The translations under genes and the position numbers were made by a program. The notes under the pieces were generated by a model that saw only the letters and a program-made list of their open reading frames with translations, searched no databases and had not been told where the DNA came from. This document shows, piece by piece, positions 11,241 through 31,386 of a DNA stretch of 43,605 nucleotides. Position 1 is the first letter of the stretch, and the number at the start of each line of letters is the position of its first letter. Origin of the DNA: a virus; the IMG/VR virus record IMGVR_UViG_3300025162_000081, positions 1 through 43,605 of that record; one strand, given 5' to 3'.

Positions 11241-11474
11241 GTGAAAACTTGTAAAAAGATTTCAACTGGAGAGATATTTGAATATGAACAATGTGTTTCT
11301 TATCCTGTATTTGATAGAACTCGAAATAACGGCACAATATATTTTGAATTAATTTCAAAAGGTAAGTTTGTTCTGGGTAAGTATATTGGTGAGGACGAAT
11401 TTTATGATGAATATATTGATATTAAAAAAGAAAGAAGACTTAAATTAGAAAAATTAAATCAAATTCTCCAATAA
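11241..11474 (+). CDS. hypothetical protein (GTG start) ending ..KKERRLKLEKLNQILQ (tail variant)
   Basis: No ATG start; weak. Confidence 0.25.
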   Translation: MKTCKKISTGEIFEYEQCVSYPVFDRTRNNGTIYFELISKGKFVLGKYIGEDEFYDEYIDIKKERRLKLEKLNQILQ

Positions 11475-12397
11475 AACCCTTTATATTTAGTATTTTTTGC
11501 TATCGCCTTTCTTAAGTTTTGAATACATATTTCATTATAATTTTTTATTTCCTTAATATTATTCCAAATCCTAACTATACTTCCTTTTTCGTCTATTTGT
11601 TTAATGTTAGTATATTCTCTCGTATTTAAATTTAATTTTTTAATATTATTCTCAATTTCGGCTTTTTCTAAAAAGTTTAATGAATAATAATAATTTTTAG
11701 CATGCCTACATCTATCTTGTAAAACGAAACTTATAGAACGTGGATTAACATTCATTTCTCTTGAGCATTCTTTTATACTGTTAAATTTTTTTATATAATT
11801 TCCAAACATATCATATTGATATATCTCTATGTTTGTACATTTATTTTTATTATCTCTTATTGGTATATTATTTTCTTTTAATATTTTAGTAATAGTTTCT
11901 CTATCAATTTTTAATTCTATTGATATTTTTTTAATTGATAATTTATTAAAATATAATTCTTTAACTACATCAAGATATTTGCTCCTTTTTAATTTGTATG
12001 CTTTTGATACATTATTTCTATGTTCGTTTGTCCATTTCAATTCTAAATTTGTTGCCGCAAATGCTCTAGAATTATATCCATTTTTATAAGAGTTATATTC
12101 ATCAATATAATACTGTTCTCTTTTTATGCAACTATCACGATCACACTCTTCAATTATTTCAAATATTATATTATCAATTCCATACTTATTGACCGCATTT
12201 TGTAAAGAAGGTGAGTTAGATATATTTTTTGATAGTTTTAAAATATGACTGAGCCATCTTTTATGAAACCCATTTTTATTAGAAGTACTACCAATATAAA
12301 CTTTACCATTATTGTTAATAAAACTTATCTTATATACACCAATACTTTTAGGGAATATTTTTTTATCATTTATCGTATATTTCATTTTATATTTCAT
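11459..12397 (-). CDS. GIY-YIG homing endonuclease with NUMOD1-type C-terminal DNA-binding modules
   Basis: N-terminus IGVYKISFINNNGKVYIGSTSN....R...H is the GIY-YIG motif. C-terminal ..KGFYWRI helix module. Confidence 0.8.
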   Translation of the reverse strand: MKYKMKYTINDKKIFPKSIGVYKISFINNNGKVYIGSTSNKNGFHKRWLSHILKLSKNISNSPSLQNAVNKYGIDNIIFEIIEECDRDSCIKREQYYIDEYNSYKNGYNSRAFAATNLELKWTNEHRNNVSKAYKLKRSKYLDVVKELYFNKLSIKKISIELKIDRETITKILKENNIPIRDNKNKCTNIEIYQYDMFGNYIKKFNSIKECSREMNVNPRSISFVLQDRCRHAKNYYYSLNFLEKAEIENNIKKLNLNTREYTNIKQIDEKGSIVRIWNNIKEIKNYNEICIQNLRKAIAKNTKYKGFYWRI

Positions 12398-15401: not shown

Positions 15402-15518
15402 CTTTATATTTTGTTTATATATAACTAATTAATATACATATTTGTCCAGTTATTTTTGTTAAAAAGATGACATTTTTATTTTTTTACATCATTCCTTGTT
15501 TATATGAAGTTTTTTTTG

Positions 15519-16078: not shown

Positions 16079-16358
16079 AATTATGAAATATTTAACTTTA
16101 GAACATTTAGGTACATTACCTACACCAAGATTACTTACTTACTATAAAATAGTTAGAAGGAAAATTAGAAGGCATCAGAATTCATTATATTGTGAGTGTT
16201 GTGGCACACCTGTTTATCAATTATATGGTAAATTAAATACAAAAGAAGAAAATGAAAAATTGAAACTAGAATTTGAAACTGATCTTCATGATAGTGAAAA
16301 CTATCTTGAATCAATAAAAACATTATTAAACACAAGAGAACACGTAAAACGAAAATGA
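16062..16358 (+). CDS. hypothetical protein (CxxC pair)
   Basis: 98 aa. CECCGTP motif. Confidence 0.4.
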   Translation: MKIYIKIMKYLTLEHLGTLPTPRLLTYYKIVRRKIRRHQNSLYCECCGTPVYQLYGKLNTKEENEKLKLEFETDLHDSENYLESIKTLLNTREHVKRK

Positions 16359-17029
16359 AACATTACGATAGTTTTGAGAATATTAAGTACGACCAACTTT
16401 TGTTGGGTGAAGAAATCTGGGCATCAAATAAAATTGATGGTCAGAATTTTTGTGCTAAATATTCACCGAGACAAAAAGAATTTACTATGTTTGGATCTAA
16501 AAATCAAAATGTAGATGAAACAAGTGAGCAATTTGGTAAAGCAGTTTTGTATTTCAAACAAAATATGGCTGATACTCTAAAACAAATCATCATAAACAAT
16601 TCAAAAAAAGGTGGAGTATTTACTGGCGTTGAAGAAATTACAGTATTTTGTGAGTGGTACGGTGAGAACACTTTTAGTGGATTTCATGTGCCTGGCGAAG
16701 AATTAAAATTATGTCTAATAGATGTGTTCTTGAAAAAGAAAGGCTACATTGAACCAAAAATATTCTATAAACTCTTTGATGGCTACAGTAATATTGAAGT
16801 ACCAGAACTCATATATAGTGGCAAACTAACAAAGGATTTCATCAATTCTATTGTGAATAATGATTGGACTAAGCCTGGTTGTTTATATCCAACTGTTAAA
16901 GAAGGTGTAGTTTGTAAACGATCAACTTTAATGAAAGGTCAAAGAATGCCAAAGGCAAAAATAAAAACTGGATGGTGGTTAAATAAATTGACAGAATTAT
17001 ATCCTGATAGATGGAAAGAATTAGAATGA
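16355..17029 (+). CDS. Rnl2-family RNA ligase, nucleotidyltransferase domain only
   Basis: N-terminus aligns with T4 RNA ligase 2 as I recall it: HYDSFENIKYDQL...IWASNKIDGQNFC vs KYSSLENHYNSKF...EWVAREKIHGTNFS (motif I KxxG lysine). Later EEITVFCEWYGE and EGVVCKR (motifs IV/V). 224 aa, so it lacks the Rnl2 C-terminal domain. Confidence 0.65.
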   Translation: MKHYDSFENIKYDQLLLGEEIWASNKIDGQNFCAKYSPRQKEFTMFGSKNQNVDETSEQFGKAVLYFKQNMADTLKQIIINNSKKGGVFTGVEEITVFCEWYGENTFSGFHVPGEELKLCLIDVFLKKKGYIEPKIFYKLFDGYSNIEVPELIYSGKLTKDFINSIVNNDWTKPGCLYPTVKEGVVCKRSTLMKGQRMPKAKIKTGWWLNKLTELYPDRWKELE

Positions 17030-18242
17030 ACTACTAAGTAGTTTCCTTACAAAGATTATACTTTATAAGAACTTTAGATAAATCTAAAGGCTCGTTCATA
17101 GAAGCAAAGTGATTTCCGAACCACCTATTCAATATATTTATGGCTGAATTTAAATCACGGTCTATAATTATGGTGTCTGATAACTGAACTTCCCTATTAC
17201 CAAGACTTATTTTATCTTTAAATAGTTTTCCAGTTAGACAGTTAATTTGTGTTGTCCATTTTTCATCAATTTTCACCAAGTTGGTATTTTTTGCTTGACA
17301 CTTATATGTAAGGAATTGTAGAAACATATTGATATTAGATTGACTAAATGACTTTCTAATACCTTTTTTATTCTCATTCACTCCTTCTGTTGACATTAGC
17401 CTCTTAACTGTTAGATCACCAACTACAATTGTATTGTAGTTCATATTCGATAACTTTTTACTCTGAATATGAAGAGTTTGTTTTATTTGTTCGTTCTTTT
17501 TATGATAACATTTATTTAATGTTTTTTTCAATAATAAGTTTCTATTTGATCCTTTTGTTGTTTTACTCCTTTTGTTTTGTATTTTTGCTATTTGTTTCTG
17601 ATAATAATCATTAATTTTTTTAGATTTATTTTTTAATACAATCATACCACCTTTATTATCTATTCCTGTTCCTAATTTACTTAACCCCAAATCAATAGCA
17701 AGAACTTTAGTTTTAACATTAACATCATTAAAATATTCTATTTTATCGTCAATCACCAAATCACACAACCATTTATGTCTAATAAATTTAATTCTTATTT
17801 CTTTTATTTTTAAATCTTTAATATTTAAATTTGATTTATATTCAAATGGAATTTGATTTAGAAAGAACAATCCTTTTTTTATCATCCATCCTGATTGATT
17901 AAAAGAAATAGTATGAAAATAATTATTTTCTATTTTTCTTGGTGGTTTAGCATTTTTATCTTTTTTTATCAAATTAAAAAATGACCTATAAGATCCATAT
18001 AATTCTGTTGCTATTGTTTGAATTGCCTTTGAATTTAATTTCTTCCAATCTGGATATTCTTCTTTTAATAATGGTAATAAATTATTTAACTTGAATTTAT
18101 CTAAAATTATTTTATCTGTTTCATATTTATCTTGTTGTATATCAAGCAATTTATTCCATATATCTTTACGAATATCAGATAATTCTTGTAATTCAAGAAT
18201 TTGTTCTTTTGATGGAAATAATCTTATTTGATACGTCTTCAT
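17030..18242 (-). mobile_element. IS200/IS605-family tnpB-only (IS1341-like) element; ends not determined
   Basis: TnpB ORF with no adjacent tnpA. Its stop is only 5 nt from the convergent RNA-ligase stop, so any right-end/omega-RNA scaffold must overlap 3' sequence there. Confidence 0.3.
17034..18242 (-). CDS. tnpB: TnpB (IS605 OrfB) RuvC-like RNA-guided-nuclease family protein
   Basis: N-terminus MKTYQIRLFPSKEQ. RuvC-I VLAIDLGLSKLGTG. C-terminal CLTGK...IIDRDLNSAINIL (RuvC-III DRDxNAAxNI). 402 aa. Confidence 0.8.
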   Translation of the reverse strand: MKTYQIRLFPSKEQILELQELSDIRKDIWNKLLDIQQDKYETDKIILDKFKLNNLLPLLKEEYPDWKKLNSKAIQTIATELYGSYRSFFNLIKKDKNAKPPRKIENNYFHTISFNQSGWMIKKGLFFLNQIPFEYKSNLNIKDLKIKEIRIKFIRHKWLCDLVIDDKIEYFNDVNVKTKVLAIDLGLSKLGTGIDNKGGMIVLKNKSKKINDYYQKQIAKIQNKRSKTTKGSNRNLLLKKTLNKCYHKKNEQIKQTLHIQSKKLSNMNYNTIVVGDLTVKRLMSTEGVNENKKGIRKSFSQSNINMFLQFLTYKCQAKNTNLVKIDEKWTTQINCLTGKLFKDKISLGNREVQLSDTIIIDRDLNSAINILNRWFGNHFASMNEPLDLSKVLIKYNLCKETT

Positions 18243-18314
18243 TTTACTTATACAACATTTTTTATACTATTATATATAAATATAATAAAATCAAAAAGGC
18301 TATTTTAGTGTCTT

Positions 18315-18344
18315 TTAACATTATTTAACATTAAATTAACATTA
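18315..18344 (+). repeat. three phased copies of TTAACATTA (spacing 10/11 bp) in the tnpB/NADAR divergent region
   Basis: Same core as the AAATTAACAT x3 array at 12641..12670. Confidence 0.5.
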
Positions 18345-18361
18345 AATATAAACAAATATTA

Positions 18362-18369
18362 TATATTTG
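18362..18369 (+). promoter_or_regulatory. -7 promoter box TATATTTG(TA)
   Basis: 35 nt upstream of ATG 18404. Confidence 0.35.
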
Positions 18370-18403
18370 TATAAATCTTGTAAGCAAACGAATAAAAATA
18401 AAT

Positions 18404-18862
18404 ATGGAAAAGAAATATACATTTTTTTGGAATGGAGTTTTTAGTAACTGGCATAGAGCGATATTCAAAGTGGATGGTGTTACATTTAGTTCTGGGGAAC
18501 AGTACTTCATGTACAAAAAGGCTATTGTGTTTCACGATTTTGACTCTGCAGAAAAGATTATGAATGAAGAACATCCAAGAAGGCAAAAGGCTTTAGGAAA
18601 ATTAGTAAAGAATTTTAACAAAAAAACTTGGGATGATCTTTGTTATGATATAGTTAAGGATGGATTACGTGAAAAGTTTAAGCAAAATCCTGATATGAAA
18701 GAATATCTAATTAGTTGTAAAGACACTATTATTGTTGAAGCATCACCAGAGGATAGAATTTGGGGAATTGGATACGGAGAATGGGAAGCACTTGAAAATA
18801 TTGATGATTGGGGTCAAAATCTGTTAGGTAAAATATGTACTGAATTGGCTAATGAACTATGA
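18404..18862 (+). CDS. NADAR (YbiA/DUF1768) family protein
   Basis: FFWNGVFSNWHRAIFKVDGVTFSSGEQYFMYKKA...HPRRQKALGK...KFKQNPD...IVEASPEDRIWGIGYG is the family signature end to end. Confidence 0.7.
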   Translation: MEKKYTFFWNGVFSNWHRAIFKVDGVTFSSGEQYFMYKKAIVFHDFDSAEKIMNEEHPRRQKALGKLVKNFNKKTWDDLCYDIVKDGLREKFKQNPDMKEYLISCKDTIIVEASPEDRIWGIGYGEWEALENIDDWGQNLLGKICTELANEL

Positions 18863-19467: not shown

Positions 19468-19818
19468 ATGAACTACTCAGAGATCAAAATGTTAGAAGGT
19501 TCAATCAAAAATGAACTTCAGAAAAGGTTTCCTTATTCATCTACAAAGGTTTCCACATTAGGAGGTGAAAGTAAAGCAACAATCTTTTTCACTTTTAGTC
19601 TTGACAAATCAAGCACTTGGGAAAATGGCATCATGCAGAACAGTCGTTATTTTATCTTCAGTGTAACATACAAAGGTGAAGTAGAATGTATCAGTAAGTC
19701 AGTTAAAGAAGTGAACGTAAGAAAATTCACAATTGAAAATACTGAAAAGTTATTGATCAAGATTTCTAAAGTATTGGATGAAGTTAAAACTAAGGCAAAT
19801 AAAAAAGTTACTGCATAA
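19468..19818 (+). CDS. hypothetical protein
   Basis: 116 aa. Confidence 0.4.
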   Translation: MNYSEIKMLEGSIKNELQKRFPYSSTKVSTLGGESKATIFFTFSLDKSSTWENGIMQNSRYFIFSVTYKGEVECISKSVKEVNVRKFTIENTEKLLIKISKVLDEVKTKANKKVTA

Positions 19819-19823
19819 TGAAA

Positions 19824-20279
19824 TTAAAATTTAGAGAGCAATTTTTGTTCTCTAAATTTTTTCATAGAATTTGAGATTTTATTTTTTTGTTCCTCACTAA
19901 GTTTAGTATAAACTCTTCCATTTCTTGCAGATTGTATATGTTCAACTGACTTCTTTTTACCCTTTGATGCCTTAGACATTTTTTCTCTTGTCTCTACTGA
20001 AAATATCCTACCAGTGCAACCTTTTCTTATTTTTTCTTTTCTATCATTTGATAACTTGGTACCTGTTAATGTTTTTGATATTTTTTCTTTAGTTTCATCA
20101 CTTAATGGTCCTTTTAGTACACCCTTTAATCTTTTTGACATTTTTTCTTTTGATTCTTCACTCATTTTTTGACCCTTATGTGACTCTGAATTTTTTAATG
20201 TGTGTTCAATTGATTTTTTCTTACCCTTTAATGCAGCAGACATCTTCAATTTTGTTTCTTCAGTATGATGATATCCCAT
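19824..20279 (-). CDS. free-standing NUMOD3-repeat protein (about 5 repeats)
   Basis: EETKLKMSAALKGKKKS / SEESKEKMSKRLKG / SDETKEKISKTLTG / SVETREKMSKASKGKKKS / SEEQKNKISNSMKK. Confidence 0.5.
   Translation of the reverse strand: MGYHHTEETKLKMSAALKGKKKSIEHTLKNSESHKGQKMSEESKEKMSKRLKGVLKGPLSDETKEKISKTLTGTKLSNDRKEKIRKGCTGRIFSVETREKMSKASKGKKKSVEHIQSARNGRVYTKLSEEQKNKISNSMKKFREQKLLSKF
19829..19866 (+). terminator. candidate intrinsic terminator TTAGAGA-gcaatttttgt-TCTCTAA + T-tract
   Basis: Follows stop 19818. Overlaps the last codons of the convergent minus gene. Confidence 0.3.
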
Positions 20280-30538: not shown

Positions 30539-30595
30539 CTTTGAAAATGTTAAAATACGACTTATTTATATTTATATATACATATAAAACTTTGT

Positions 30596-30739
30596 ATGAA
30601 AATTCAAAAAACATTCACAATTGAAGAAGATATTTCTAAGGAATTTGATAAAATATCAAAAGAGAAATCAATTAATAAATCTTTATTTTTAGAAAATGCA
30701 ATGAAAGATTTTATTGAAAAAAATAAGAAAGAAAAATGA
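30596..30739 (+). CDS. ribbon-helix-helix small protein, 47 aa, directly upstream of a GIY-YIG gene
   Basis: Own translation: MKIQKTFTIEEDISKEFDKISKEKSINKSLFLENAMKDFIEKNKKEK. Stop TGA overlaps endonuclease ATG (ATGA). Confidence 0.45.
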   Translation: MKIQKTFTIEEDISKEFDKISKEKSINKSLFLENAMKDFIEKNKKEK

Positions 30740-31386
30740 TAGGTATATACAAAATTACAAATATTATAAATAATAAATGTTATATAGGTTCATCAGTAGA
30801 TATTGTAGGTAGATGGTATCATCATAAAACAACATTAAAATTTAATAAACATCATTCAATAAAATTACAAAGATCCTATAATAAATACGGTTCAGATAAT
30901 TTTAAGTATGAAATTGTAGAAGAATGTGAAACAGAATTATTATTAATTAGAGAAGAATACTATATCAACTTATTTGATTGTTATAATAATGGATATAATT
31001 TTTCAATACCATCGAATTGTGTTATGCTTGGCAGACATCATAGTGAAGAAACAAAAGAAATACTTAGAGAAAAAAGTAAGGGTAATAAAAATAGATTAAA
31101 TATGACATTTAGTGATGAATCTAAAAAGAAAATAAGTGACAAATTAAAAGGACGGAAATTGTCAGATGAAACTAAACTAAATATGAGCAAAGGACAGAAG
31201 AATAGAATTTATTCAGACGAAGACTTGAAAAAAATTACTGAAATAAATAAATCTAGAATAGGAATACCGTTATCAGATGAGCATAAACTTAAATTAAGTT
31301 TAGCAAAAGTAGGAAAGAAACAAAGTCCAGAAACTATTGCAAAAAGAGTACAAAAAAACACTGGTCAAAAAAGAAAAAAAACTTAA
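30736..31386 (+). CDS. GIY-YIG homing endonuclease with NUMOD3 repeats
   Basis: MIGIYKITNIINNKCYIGSSVDIVGRWYHH (GIY..YIG..R..H). Several SEETK/SDESKKKIS/SDETK NUMOD3 repeats in the C-terminal half. Confidence 0.8.
   Translation: MIGIYKITNIINNKCYIGSSVDIVGRWYHHKTTLKFNKHHSIKLQRSYNKYGSDNFKYEIVEECETELLLIREEYYINLFDCYNNGYNFSIPSNCVMLGRHHSEETKEILREKSKGNKNRLNMTFSDESKKKISDKLKGRKLSDETKLNMSKGQKNRIYSDEDLKKITEINKSRIGIPLSDEHKLKLSLAKVGKKQSPETIAKRVQKNTGQKRKKT

Follow-up and report, generated by a model that had tools for sequence, protein, structure and literature searches.

The 43,605-nucleotide (nt) viral sequence IMGVR_UViG_3300025162_000081 (this whole stretch is called the window here) encodes on its minus strand a TnpB protein of 402 amino acids (aa), whose gene converges on a plus-strand gene for an RNA ligase-family protein so closely that only 4 nt (17030-17033) separate the two stop codons. 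An earlier note on this DNA had drawn attention to the pair, had rightly described their stops as convergent and close, and had put the distance at 5 nt, one too many. Here we delimit the element to which tnpB belongs and compare its ends, its embedded RNA scaffold and its insertion site with those of related loci (designated by L numbers). The element is an ordinary tnpB-only member of the IS200/IS605 family, of the known rearranged-RuvC type, in a huge phage. Coordinates are collected in Table 1.

Table 1. Positions of the element, its parts and neighbouring features in the window
Feature	Position	Strand	Remarks
Whole tnpB-only IS200/IS605-type element	17026..18347	minus	1322 bp
TTTAT, target/transposon-adjacent motif (TAM)	18348..18352	minus	flanks left end
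Three TAATGTTAA repeats	18315-18323, 18325-18333, 18336-18344	minus	spacing 10 and 11 nt
AT-rich 5' region, TGAyTTTATT..ATTTATATATA..TATAAAA	18243..18300	minus	conserved in all relatives
tnpB coding sequence	17034..18242	minus	402 aa, ATG start
D184	17691-17693	minus	in LAIDLGL
G275	17418-17420	minus	canonical RuvC-II Glu position
E327	17262-17264	minus	candidate alternative Glu
D363	17154-17156	minus	in IIIDRDLNSAINIL (D361/D363)
Omega-RNA scaffold candidate	17026..17135	minus	almost wholly in the tnpB open reading frame (ORF); last 8 nt past the TAG stop
Scaffold hairpins	17108-17125, 17090-17105, 17072-17089, 17044-17071, 17029-17043	minus	tail CAU 17026-17028
Guide-equivalent flank, TCTAATTCTTTCCATCTATC	17006..17025	minus	20 nt antisense to ligase 3' end
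RNA ligase-family gene	16355..17029	plus	224 aa, PF09414, intact
Second TnpB gene, N-terminal 199 codons	1..597	minus	cut by window edge

The TnpB protein and the borders of its element

The 402-aa ORF passes the curated cut-offs (in brackets) of PF12323 with 29.2 (21), PF01385 with 37.9 (30.5) and PF07282 with 35.7 (26.3), and reaches 150.2 bits with the NCBIfam model guided_TnpB, NF040570 (cut-off 100). The HTH_OrfB_IS605, OrfB_IS605 (RuvC) and Cas12f1-like TNB domains are all present, the protein matches phrog_506, annotated 'transposase', at 3e-58, and the IS200_TnpB model outscores the IS607_TnpB model. The ORF, the Pfam and NCBIfam matches and the motifs LAIDLGL and IIIDRDLNSAINIL confirm the complete TnpB, with a RuvC-I Asp and a C-terminal Asp motif, that the earlier note had described. 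Its relatives comprise more than 700 metagenomic proteins of 399-415 aa at 67-86% identity. Ratios of nonsynonymous to synonymous substitution rates (dN/dS) of 0.14-0.24 against eight full-length relatives (a ninth comparison, with L020, spanned only 280 aa) show that tnpB is under purifying selection.

The canonical RuvC D-E-D triad is incomplete. D184 and D363 are kept, and at the RuvC-II Glu each of three independent alignments to solved relatives (9j09, 9yyg, 8bf8) places G275; the zinc finger is degenerate, its CxxC..CxxC motif being missing. G275, D184, D363 and E327 are invariant in the TnpB family (41-118 homologues for the last three). In an AlphaFold (AF2) model with a predicted local distance difference test (pLDDT) score of 74.6, strands beta-4 and beta-5 span residues 271-275 and 321-325, which places E327 two residues past beta-5. 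Altae-Tran et al. 2023 described RuvC-II rearranged (RIIr) clades in which this Glu is replaced by Gly and an alternative conserved Glu lies downstream near beta-5, some rearranged branches being virus-specific and the zinc finger being lost in some (PMC10691335). The window protein resembles these clades in G275 and in the modelled position of E327. With Gly for the canonical Glu, an invariant alternative Glu after the predicted beta-5 and a degenerate zinc finger, it matches the rearranged type in its aligned residues. Foldseek ranked ISDra2 and ISFba1 TnpB first among PDB structures, Cas12f next and mimivirus Fanzor2 (ApmFanzor2) 13th, and the PDB profile matches are likewise ISDra2 and ISFba1 TnpB.

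Borders were located by comparison with 12 loci fetched from IMG/VR and 80 from metagenomes. At the right end (RE), similarity halts directly after GTAGTTCAT (GATGTCAT in one clade) in all 88 related loci, and beyond this end word 66 distinct flanks occur among 87 loci; the right end in the window is 17026. The element comprises a degenerate left end (LE), a promoter-like region, tnpB and an embedded omega-RNA scaffold that ends in GTAGTTCAT, and BLAST against L013 aligns window positions 17025-18292. The elements at two loci, L047 and L049, share 99.9% identity over 1330 nt, and their flanks are unrelated on both sides; the TnpB family has therefore transposed recently.

Full-length relatives bear, 110-170 nt upstream of the tnpB ATG, an LE hairpin of the form GAAAAC-stem-TCTTTAG-stem-GATGAAT within an outer stem, and their RE reads GAAAC-stem-TCTTTAG-stem-GTAGTTCAT. 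TTTAT precedes this LE hairpin by 13-14 nt in all 23 phage loci compared and in 106 of the 117 distinct bacterial or archaeal ones. The same LE motif recurs in at least 120 bacterial and archaeal contigs, and together with TTTAT it is one very widespread IS200/IS605 end type. Its range spans Lachnospiraceae, Chlamydiota, Marithrix, Colwellia, Thermodesulfobacteriota, Methanosarcinaceae and others (loci L101-L220). On four bacterial or archaeal contigs an ORF of 127-133 aa adjoins the LE hairpin, and in both of those tested (L156 and L138; E ~1e-34) it was confirmed as a PF01797 Y1 TnpA, with tnpB downstream. Because the LE type associates with this transposase, the family belongs to IS200/IS605 and not to IS607. 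The absence of tnpA claimed by the earlier note was borne out, tblastn with Y1 TnpA queries finding none in the window or in 100 related loci, and domains and ends alike agree with its description of an IS200/IS605-type, tnpB-only element adjoining a PF09414 ligase. A TnpA supplied in trans, by the remainder of the phage genome or by the host, is conceivable.

The subterminal hairpins at both ends are not kept in the window copy, which is a degenerate IS200/IS605 derivative: the LE hairpin has been lost, and that of the RE survives as a 6-bp remnant, AACTAC-TTA-GTAGTT. Since the LE hairpin needed by Y1 TnpA is gone and the RE hairpin trimmed, this copy is probably not mobilisable by TnpA. The condition is shared by L001/L024, L003, L013, L018, L020 and others, a hairpin-less subgroup that occupies at least six different sites and whose closest pair at different sites (short-type elements) is 93.7% identical. 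We rejected a further GTAGTTCAT, at 19468-19476, as a solo right end: it merely forms the start (ATGAACTAC) of an ORF at 19468..19818, with no adjacent hairpin and no match to the covariance model described below. Elsewhere in the family, L013 6001-7220 and L016 113-1330 (also L073) have right flanks 100% identical over 200 nt, elements 89% identical and differing left flanks, a pattern that may stem from one allele replacing another, or from gene conversion among TnpB paralogues, at a fixed site.

Scaffold, predicted guide and target site

In most of the 88 loci the tnpB ORF ends 5-11 nt from the RE border, the stop codon ranging from 29 nt past to 23 nt before it. With the stop so near the right end, the scaffold must fall in coding sequence. 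The conserved G-TAG-TTCAT supplies the in-frame tnpB stop in 34 of 88 loci, and in 9 of 88 the ORF reads beyond the element end into the flank, giving variable C-terminal tails.

Some 110 nt at the right end of the element make up the scaffold, a row of hairpins that closes with GTAGTTCAU, and RNAalifold on 64 sequences recovered consecutive stems with compensatory changes. For four helices (28 pairs) in 36 full-type relatives, 96.7% of cells are paired, compared with 36-49% when partners are slid by 1-3 columns. Sixteen of the 28 pairs changed on both sides; so did 161 individual cells, against 56 in shuffles, a value that 0 of 500 shuffles reached. A covariance model built from the 36 full-type sequences, with the window excluded, gave one strong match in the window, at 17026-17135 (minus; 114.8 bits, E=1.2e-23), and the last 100 nt of the window element fold into five hairpins with a minimum free energy of -25.2 kcal/mol (z = -3.4). 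The RNA structure stops exactly where the flanks diverge. Rfam at gathering thresholds gave no match in the whole window; the omega-RNA of this TnpB family is absent from Rfam.

The covariance search at the 3' end, proposed in the earlier note, thus found the structure. That note had also reasoned that any scaffold must overlap the 3' end of the ligase, which proved wrong: the scaffold lies inside the tnpB ORF, and the element ends at 17026 with just 4 nt of the ligase ORF inside it. Where it had named, as evidence against its reading, the lack of an omega-RNA-like structure together with missing catalytic RuvC residues, we find the structure present, the RuvC-II Glu missing in the alignments (G275) and the alternative E327 invariant.

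Positions 17006-17025 would be the guide because they lie directly 3' of the RE, in keeping with the established TnpB rule. This flank, TCTAATTCTTTCCATCTATC, agrees with element-free alleles at 20 of 20 positions in L097-99, where it is preceded by ATTAT, and at 18 of 20 in L275/276, where it is preceded by TTTAT.

The gene to which the flank belongs matches PF09414 with 37 bits (cut-off 27; 4.9e-9) and has motif I, NKIDG, at residues 25-29; against PDB sequences it gave no match. More than 60 homologues are 221-228 aa long, nearly all ending ...ELE at the same position, and the window ligase is therefore full length. Among the 120 matches listed, homologues range over 165-243 aa, nearly all with the same ...ELE end. 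T4 Rnl2 has 334 aa, with an Rnl2-specific C-terminal domain. This domain is absent from the 224-aa ligase and from all its relatives, so the epithet 'Rnl2-like' given to it earlier holds at the level of PF09414 and fails for the C-terminal domain. The short length is native and not caused by the insertion.

Native ligase alleles end GAA TAA or GAG TAG. The element-free alleles of L097-99 and L275/276 end GAA TTA GAA TAA, and the window and two same-strain contigs end GAA TTA GAA TGA followed by ACTAC.... Element-free GAA TAA reads TTTAT|TCTAATTC on the other strand; on the tnpB strand, L275 and L276 read TTTAT|TCTAATTCTTTCCA, that is, the TAM with the right flank of the window copy immediately after it. 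When 17025 is joined to 18348, ...WKELE-TAA, a 53-nt spacer and the start of a NADAR-domain gene are re-created without duplication, giving ligase, 53-nt spacer and NADAR as the order before insertion; the empty ligase-NADAR junction is predicted to read ...GAATTAGAATAAACAAATATTATAT... on this reconstruction.

On the minus strand, the element went in 3' of a TTTAT that overlaps the ligase stop codon; read in reverse complement, this target consists of the final Glu codon's last base, the TAA stop and one A. IS200/IS605 elements make no target duplication, and with a right end ...TTCAT the ligase frame is therefore restored with a TGA stop. Four nt of the ORF come from the right end of the element: this TGA (17027-17029) and, at 17026, the last base of Glu224. 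As the aligned alleles show, insertion swapped the TAA of the ligase for TGA and left the ligase intact. The earlier note had left it between insertion here and domestication; the answer is insertion, at a TTTAT overlapping the stop codon of a full-length ligase.

Directly past the left border of the element lies the NADAR-domain gene (18404-18862, plus; PF08719, 4e-45). The same-strain contigs L014 (1713 bp), L096 (1450 bp) and L100 (contig end) stop within TnpB genes or at their margins; multi-copy repeats would be expected to break an assembly in this way.

Proposed mechanism, alternative readings and genomic setting

We put at roughly 80% the probability that this is a non-autonomous, tnpB-only IS200/IS605-family element (IS1341-like), inserted at TTTAT in a huge bacteriophage and endowed with a rearranged TnpB, an embedded guide-RNA scaffold and a homing-type mechanism. 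Once the scaffold is expressed as RNA, its guide would be provided by the next 16-20 nt of flank, which run antisense to the 3' end of the ligase gene. The TnpB-RNA complex would recognise TTTAT followed by TCTAATTCTTTCC..., the unoccupied allele of the ligase locus found in related phages, and would cut it; recombinational repair from the occupied genome would then copy the element in, like homing during co-infection. The window copy would persist only via its nuclease or by inertia.

Several observations weigh against this reading. Much of the covariance-model score reflects conservation of coding sequence, and the terminal helix could act as a single-stranded DNA (ssDNA) hairpin for TnpA and not as RNA. 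The protein has neither the canonical RuvC-II Glu nor the CxxC..CxxC zinc finger, its predicted activity following by analogy from rearranged clades that are themselves predicted to be active. With the LE hairpin missing, the classical transposon life cycle cannot operate for the window copy. The target reconstruction depends on ligase alleles 80-81% identical, and a search of IMG/VR for the exact empty ligase-NADAR junction did not find it.

A farther-reaching proposal, conceivable and yet doubtful, concerns the hairpin-less subgroup (window, L001/L024, L003, L013, L018, L020). It may represent a huge-phage TnpB lineage without TnpA transposition that survives solely as a homing endonuclease guided by RNA, or as a weapon turned on co-infecting phages with the empty allele. 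Both TnpA-binding hairpins are deleted in the subgroup, yet tnpB, the embedded scaffold and the TTCAT end are under purifying selection. 'Transposon non-restorative homing' into co-infecting phages is already a category in a 2026 OMEGA review.

We regard as improbable the opposite extreme, a decaying relic in which an immobilised pseudo-element with a catalytically dead TnpB has simply not yet been deleted. Such a relic would be consistent with Gly at the canonical Glu position, the absent zinc-finger cysteines, the absent LE hairpin and the shortened RE hairpin, and also with the only 93.7% identity of the closest short-type pair at different sites, which gives no sign of recent movement. However, the 402-aa ORF is intact, its dN/dS stays at 0.14-0.24 across the eight full-length relatives, E327, D184 and D363 are invariant in 41-118 homologues, and compensatory changes keep the RNA helices. 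The G275 pattern, moreover, is common to every family member, including the recently transposed L047/L049, and rearranged clades are predicted to be active by Altae-Tran et al. (PMC10691335).

The proximity of the two genes might instead reflect a domesticated TnpB working with the RNA ligase, either through a guide or antisense RNA controlling the ligase or as an RNA-repair or defence module. Just 4 nt and no terminator lie between the convergent genes, the predicted guide runs antisense to the 3' end of the ligase gene, and the LE hairpin was lost while tnpB stayed under selection. Nonetheless, the adjacency is limited to one strain (window, L095, L096), tblastn with the ligase gave no match in any of ~90 other loci of this TnpB family, and in other phages the genes downstream of the ligase homologues are unrelated, TnpB being absent. 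Any flank of a TnpB element, furthermore, automatically becomes its 'guide'. With the ligase a neighbour in this strain only, a functional TnpB-ligase association is therefore unsupported, and we consider it very unlikely.

The source of the window is a huge bacteriophage rather than a eukaryotic virus. Its genes include those for a glucosaminidase-type endolysin (peptidoglycan hydrolase), a heptosyltransferase (GT9), a SIS-domain protein and a cobalamin adenosyltransferase. The contigs that carry close homologues of the ligase are 370-660 kb long and include one with the label Lak megaphage, and one related TnpB locus is surrounded by RecA-, DnaB- and RNR-type genes. In the INPHARED phage database the sole nucleotide match is 132 nt in Lak-B7/B8, and TnpB matches are all at or below 28% identity. 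Given this bacteriophage gene content, the gene is therefore a TnpB and not a Fanzor, and the Fanzor-type label of the earlier note falls away. A Fanzor or IS607-type element of a eukaryotic giant virus, as might be suspected from window ORFs of vault-protein-like (major vault protein, MVP-like), RCC1, ankyrin and sulfotransferase type at ~27% GC and from the rank-13 fold match to ApmFanzor2, can practically be dismissed in view of these phage genes and relatives, ends that are IS200/IS605 hairpins tied to Y1 TnpA and not to a serine recombinase, the higher IS200_TnpB score and best fold matches that are bacterial TnpBs.

Lak megaphages recode TAG. With TAG as the tnpB stop, stop-codon recoding was considered here and rejected: the standard code gives ~81% coding (ORFs of at least 100 aa), and reading TAG as sense adds little. 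A tRNA scan of the window found none.

The second TnpB-like N-terminus at the window edge is as the earlier note had described it, an open frame of 199 codons without ATG, and indeed without GTG or TTG, that matches the N-terminal 180 positions of phrog_506 at 4.5e-17. The view of the two TnpBs as copies has to be given up. They share 34% identity over just 41 aa, and the second is a different, distantly related lineage and not a second copy; in that lineage RuvC-II is likewise rearranged and the zinc finger missing (IVIGYNEGW, HEESYTSKCS, NADINGSGNI). The missing start codon suggests a non-ATG start or ongoing decay. ATT-AGA stands where the homologue P0241 has Met-Lys, and several homologues of the second lineage (P0241-P0249) are called only from internal Met codons.

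Some 50 nt upstream of the two TnpB genes (TGACTTTATTTTATTTATATATA...) are 86% identical, the copy of the second gene lying at 593-642, and this common stretch is probably a promoter. For the window element, the AT-rich 5' region is presumably its promoter and leader. The motif TGACTTTATTTTATTTATATATA..TATAAAA occurs at 606-624 and 18271-18289 (minus), though the two TnpBs are less than 35% identical, and weaker copies lie upstream of other genes at 15405-15423 and 30562-30580 (both plus). A scan of 16300-18450 for sigma-70 promoters and terminators returned fewer promoter-like sites than shuffles and no terminator.

Farther upstream, the threefold TTAACATTA of the earlier note was recovered as three copies of its reverse complement, TAATGTTAA, at 18315-18344. 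The triplet occupies the place of the relatives' LE hairpin and is restricted to one strain (window and L014) among 220 loci. The word TAATGTTAA/TTAACATTA totals 7 copies in the window against 2.9 expected, and the repeat region shows no significant ssDNA fold (z = -1.1). As a recurrent element the triplet was rejected, 53 IMG/VR matches being generic 6-/12-nt low-complexity repeats, none near TnpB. The TTAACATTA repeats are part of the degenerate left end, and a function for them is unsupported.

Among the remaining genes, three encode GIY-YIG/NUMOD homing endonucleases within 27 kb (11459-12397, minus; 30736-31386, plus; 37972-38742, plus), making the genome, with its two TnpBs, rich in selfish nucleases. 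A 151-aa ORF (19824-20279, minus) has repeated K-x-S-x-x-x-K-G-K units that, by inspection of the translation, resemble NUMOD3 DNA-binding repeats without a nuclease domain. An 803-aa ORF (34998-37409, plus) combines a major-vault-protein shoulder domain (PF11978, 1.7e-26) with a Vault_3 repeat, which is unusual for a bacteriophage, and has no PHROG match.

These findings leave the current understanding of TnpB unchanged. The locus is a clean natural example of a TnpB element in a gene-dense phage at no cost to the neighbouring gene, a target motif that overlaps a stop codon and an element end that gives a new one amounting to a cost-free mode of insertion. Compaction is extreme, the same stretch of DNA being under constraint at the protein and the RNA level, and covariation methods could usefully be tested on it. 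The hairpin-less phage subgroup is a testable case of TnpB survival without a transposase, and the family at large (at least 700 proteins; AT-rich, no zinc finger, rearranged RuvC) could interest those who mine for compact nucleases.

Comparison with known systems

By published description, ISGst2 of Geobacillus stearothermophilus is similar in being mostly tnpB-only and non-autonomous, with an omega-RNA that overlaps the tnpB 3' end and the RE. Meers et al. 2023 determined TTTAT experimentally as the TAM of its TnpB2 (5'-TTTAT-3', as here) and proposed that a guide RNA directs cutting of the empty site, after which recombination copies the element back (doi 10.1101/2023.03.14.532601). Unlike ISGst2, the window element resides in a huge phage, encodes a TnpB with Gly in place of the RuvC-II Glu and without a zinc finger, and has lost its LE hairpin.

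Among structures, ISDra2 TnpB (8EXA, 8H1J, 8BF8) matches best (Foldseek E=7e-15), and its profile match reaches E=1e-5; it has a similar length (~400 aa) and the same domain order of WED/REC, RuvC and TNB. As in the window family, its guide RNA (reRNA) comes from the tnpB 3' end plus the RE. ISDra2 TnpB has the canonical D191/E278/D361 triad and a TTGAT TAM. Sequence identity between the two is ~20%, and in the window family, in contrast to ISDra2, the scaffold is almost entirely coding.

The free-standing homing endonucleases of T4-like phages (Seg/Mob, GIY-YIG) offer a functional parallel. They too are selfish nuclease genes lying between conserved phage genes, and like them the window element would be expected to cut the element-free allele of a co-infecting phage and be copied in by repair. 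Recognition here, however, would rest on RNA and a TAM rather than on protein, and homing itself is a prediction for the window element. Fanzor2 of giant viruses (ApmFz2, 9B0L) is likewise a TnpB-superfamily nuclease in a large virus with an omega-RNA at the 3' end. Fanzor2 is IS607-related and belongs to a eukaryotic virus, whereas the window gene lies in a bacteriophage between Y1-type ends and ranks bacterial TnpB folds first.

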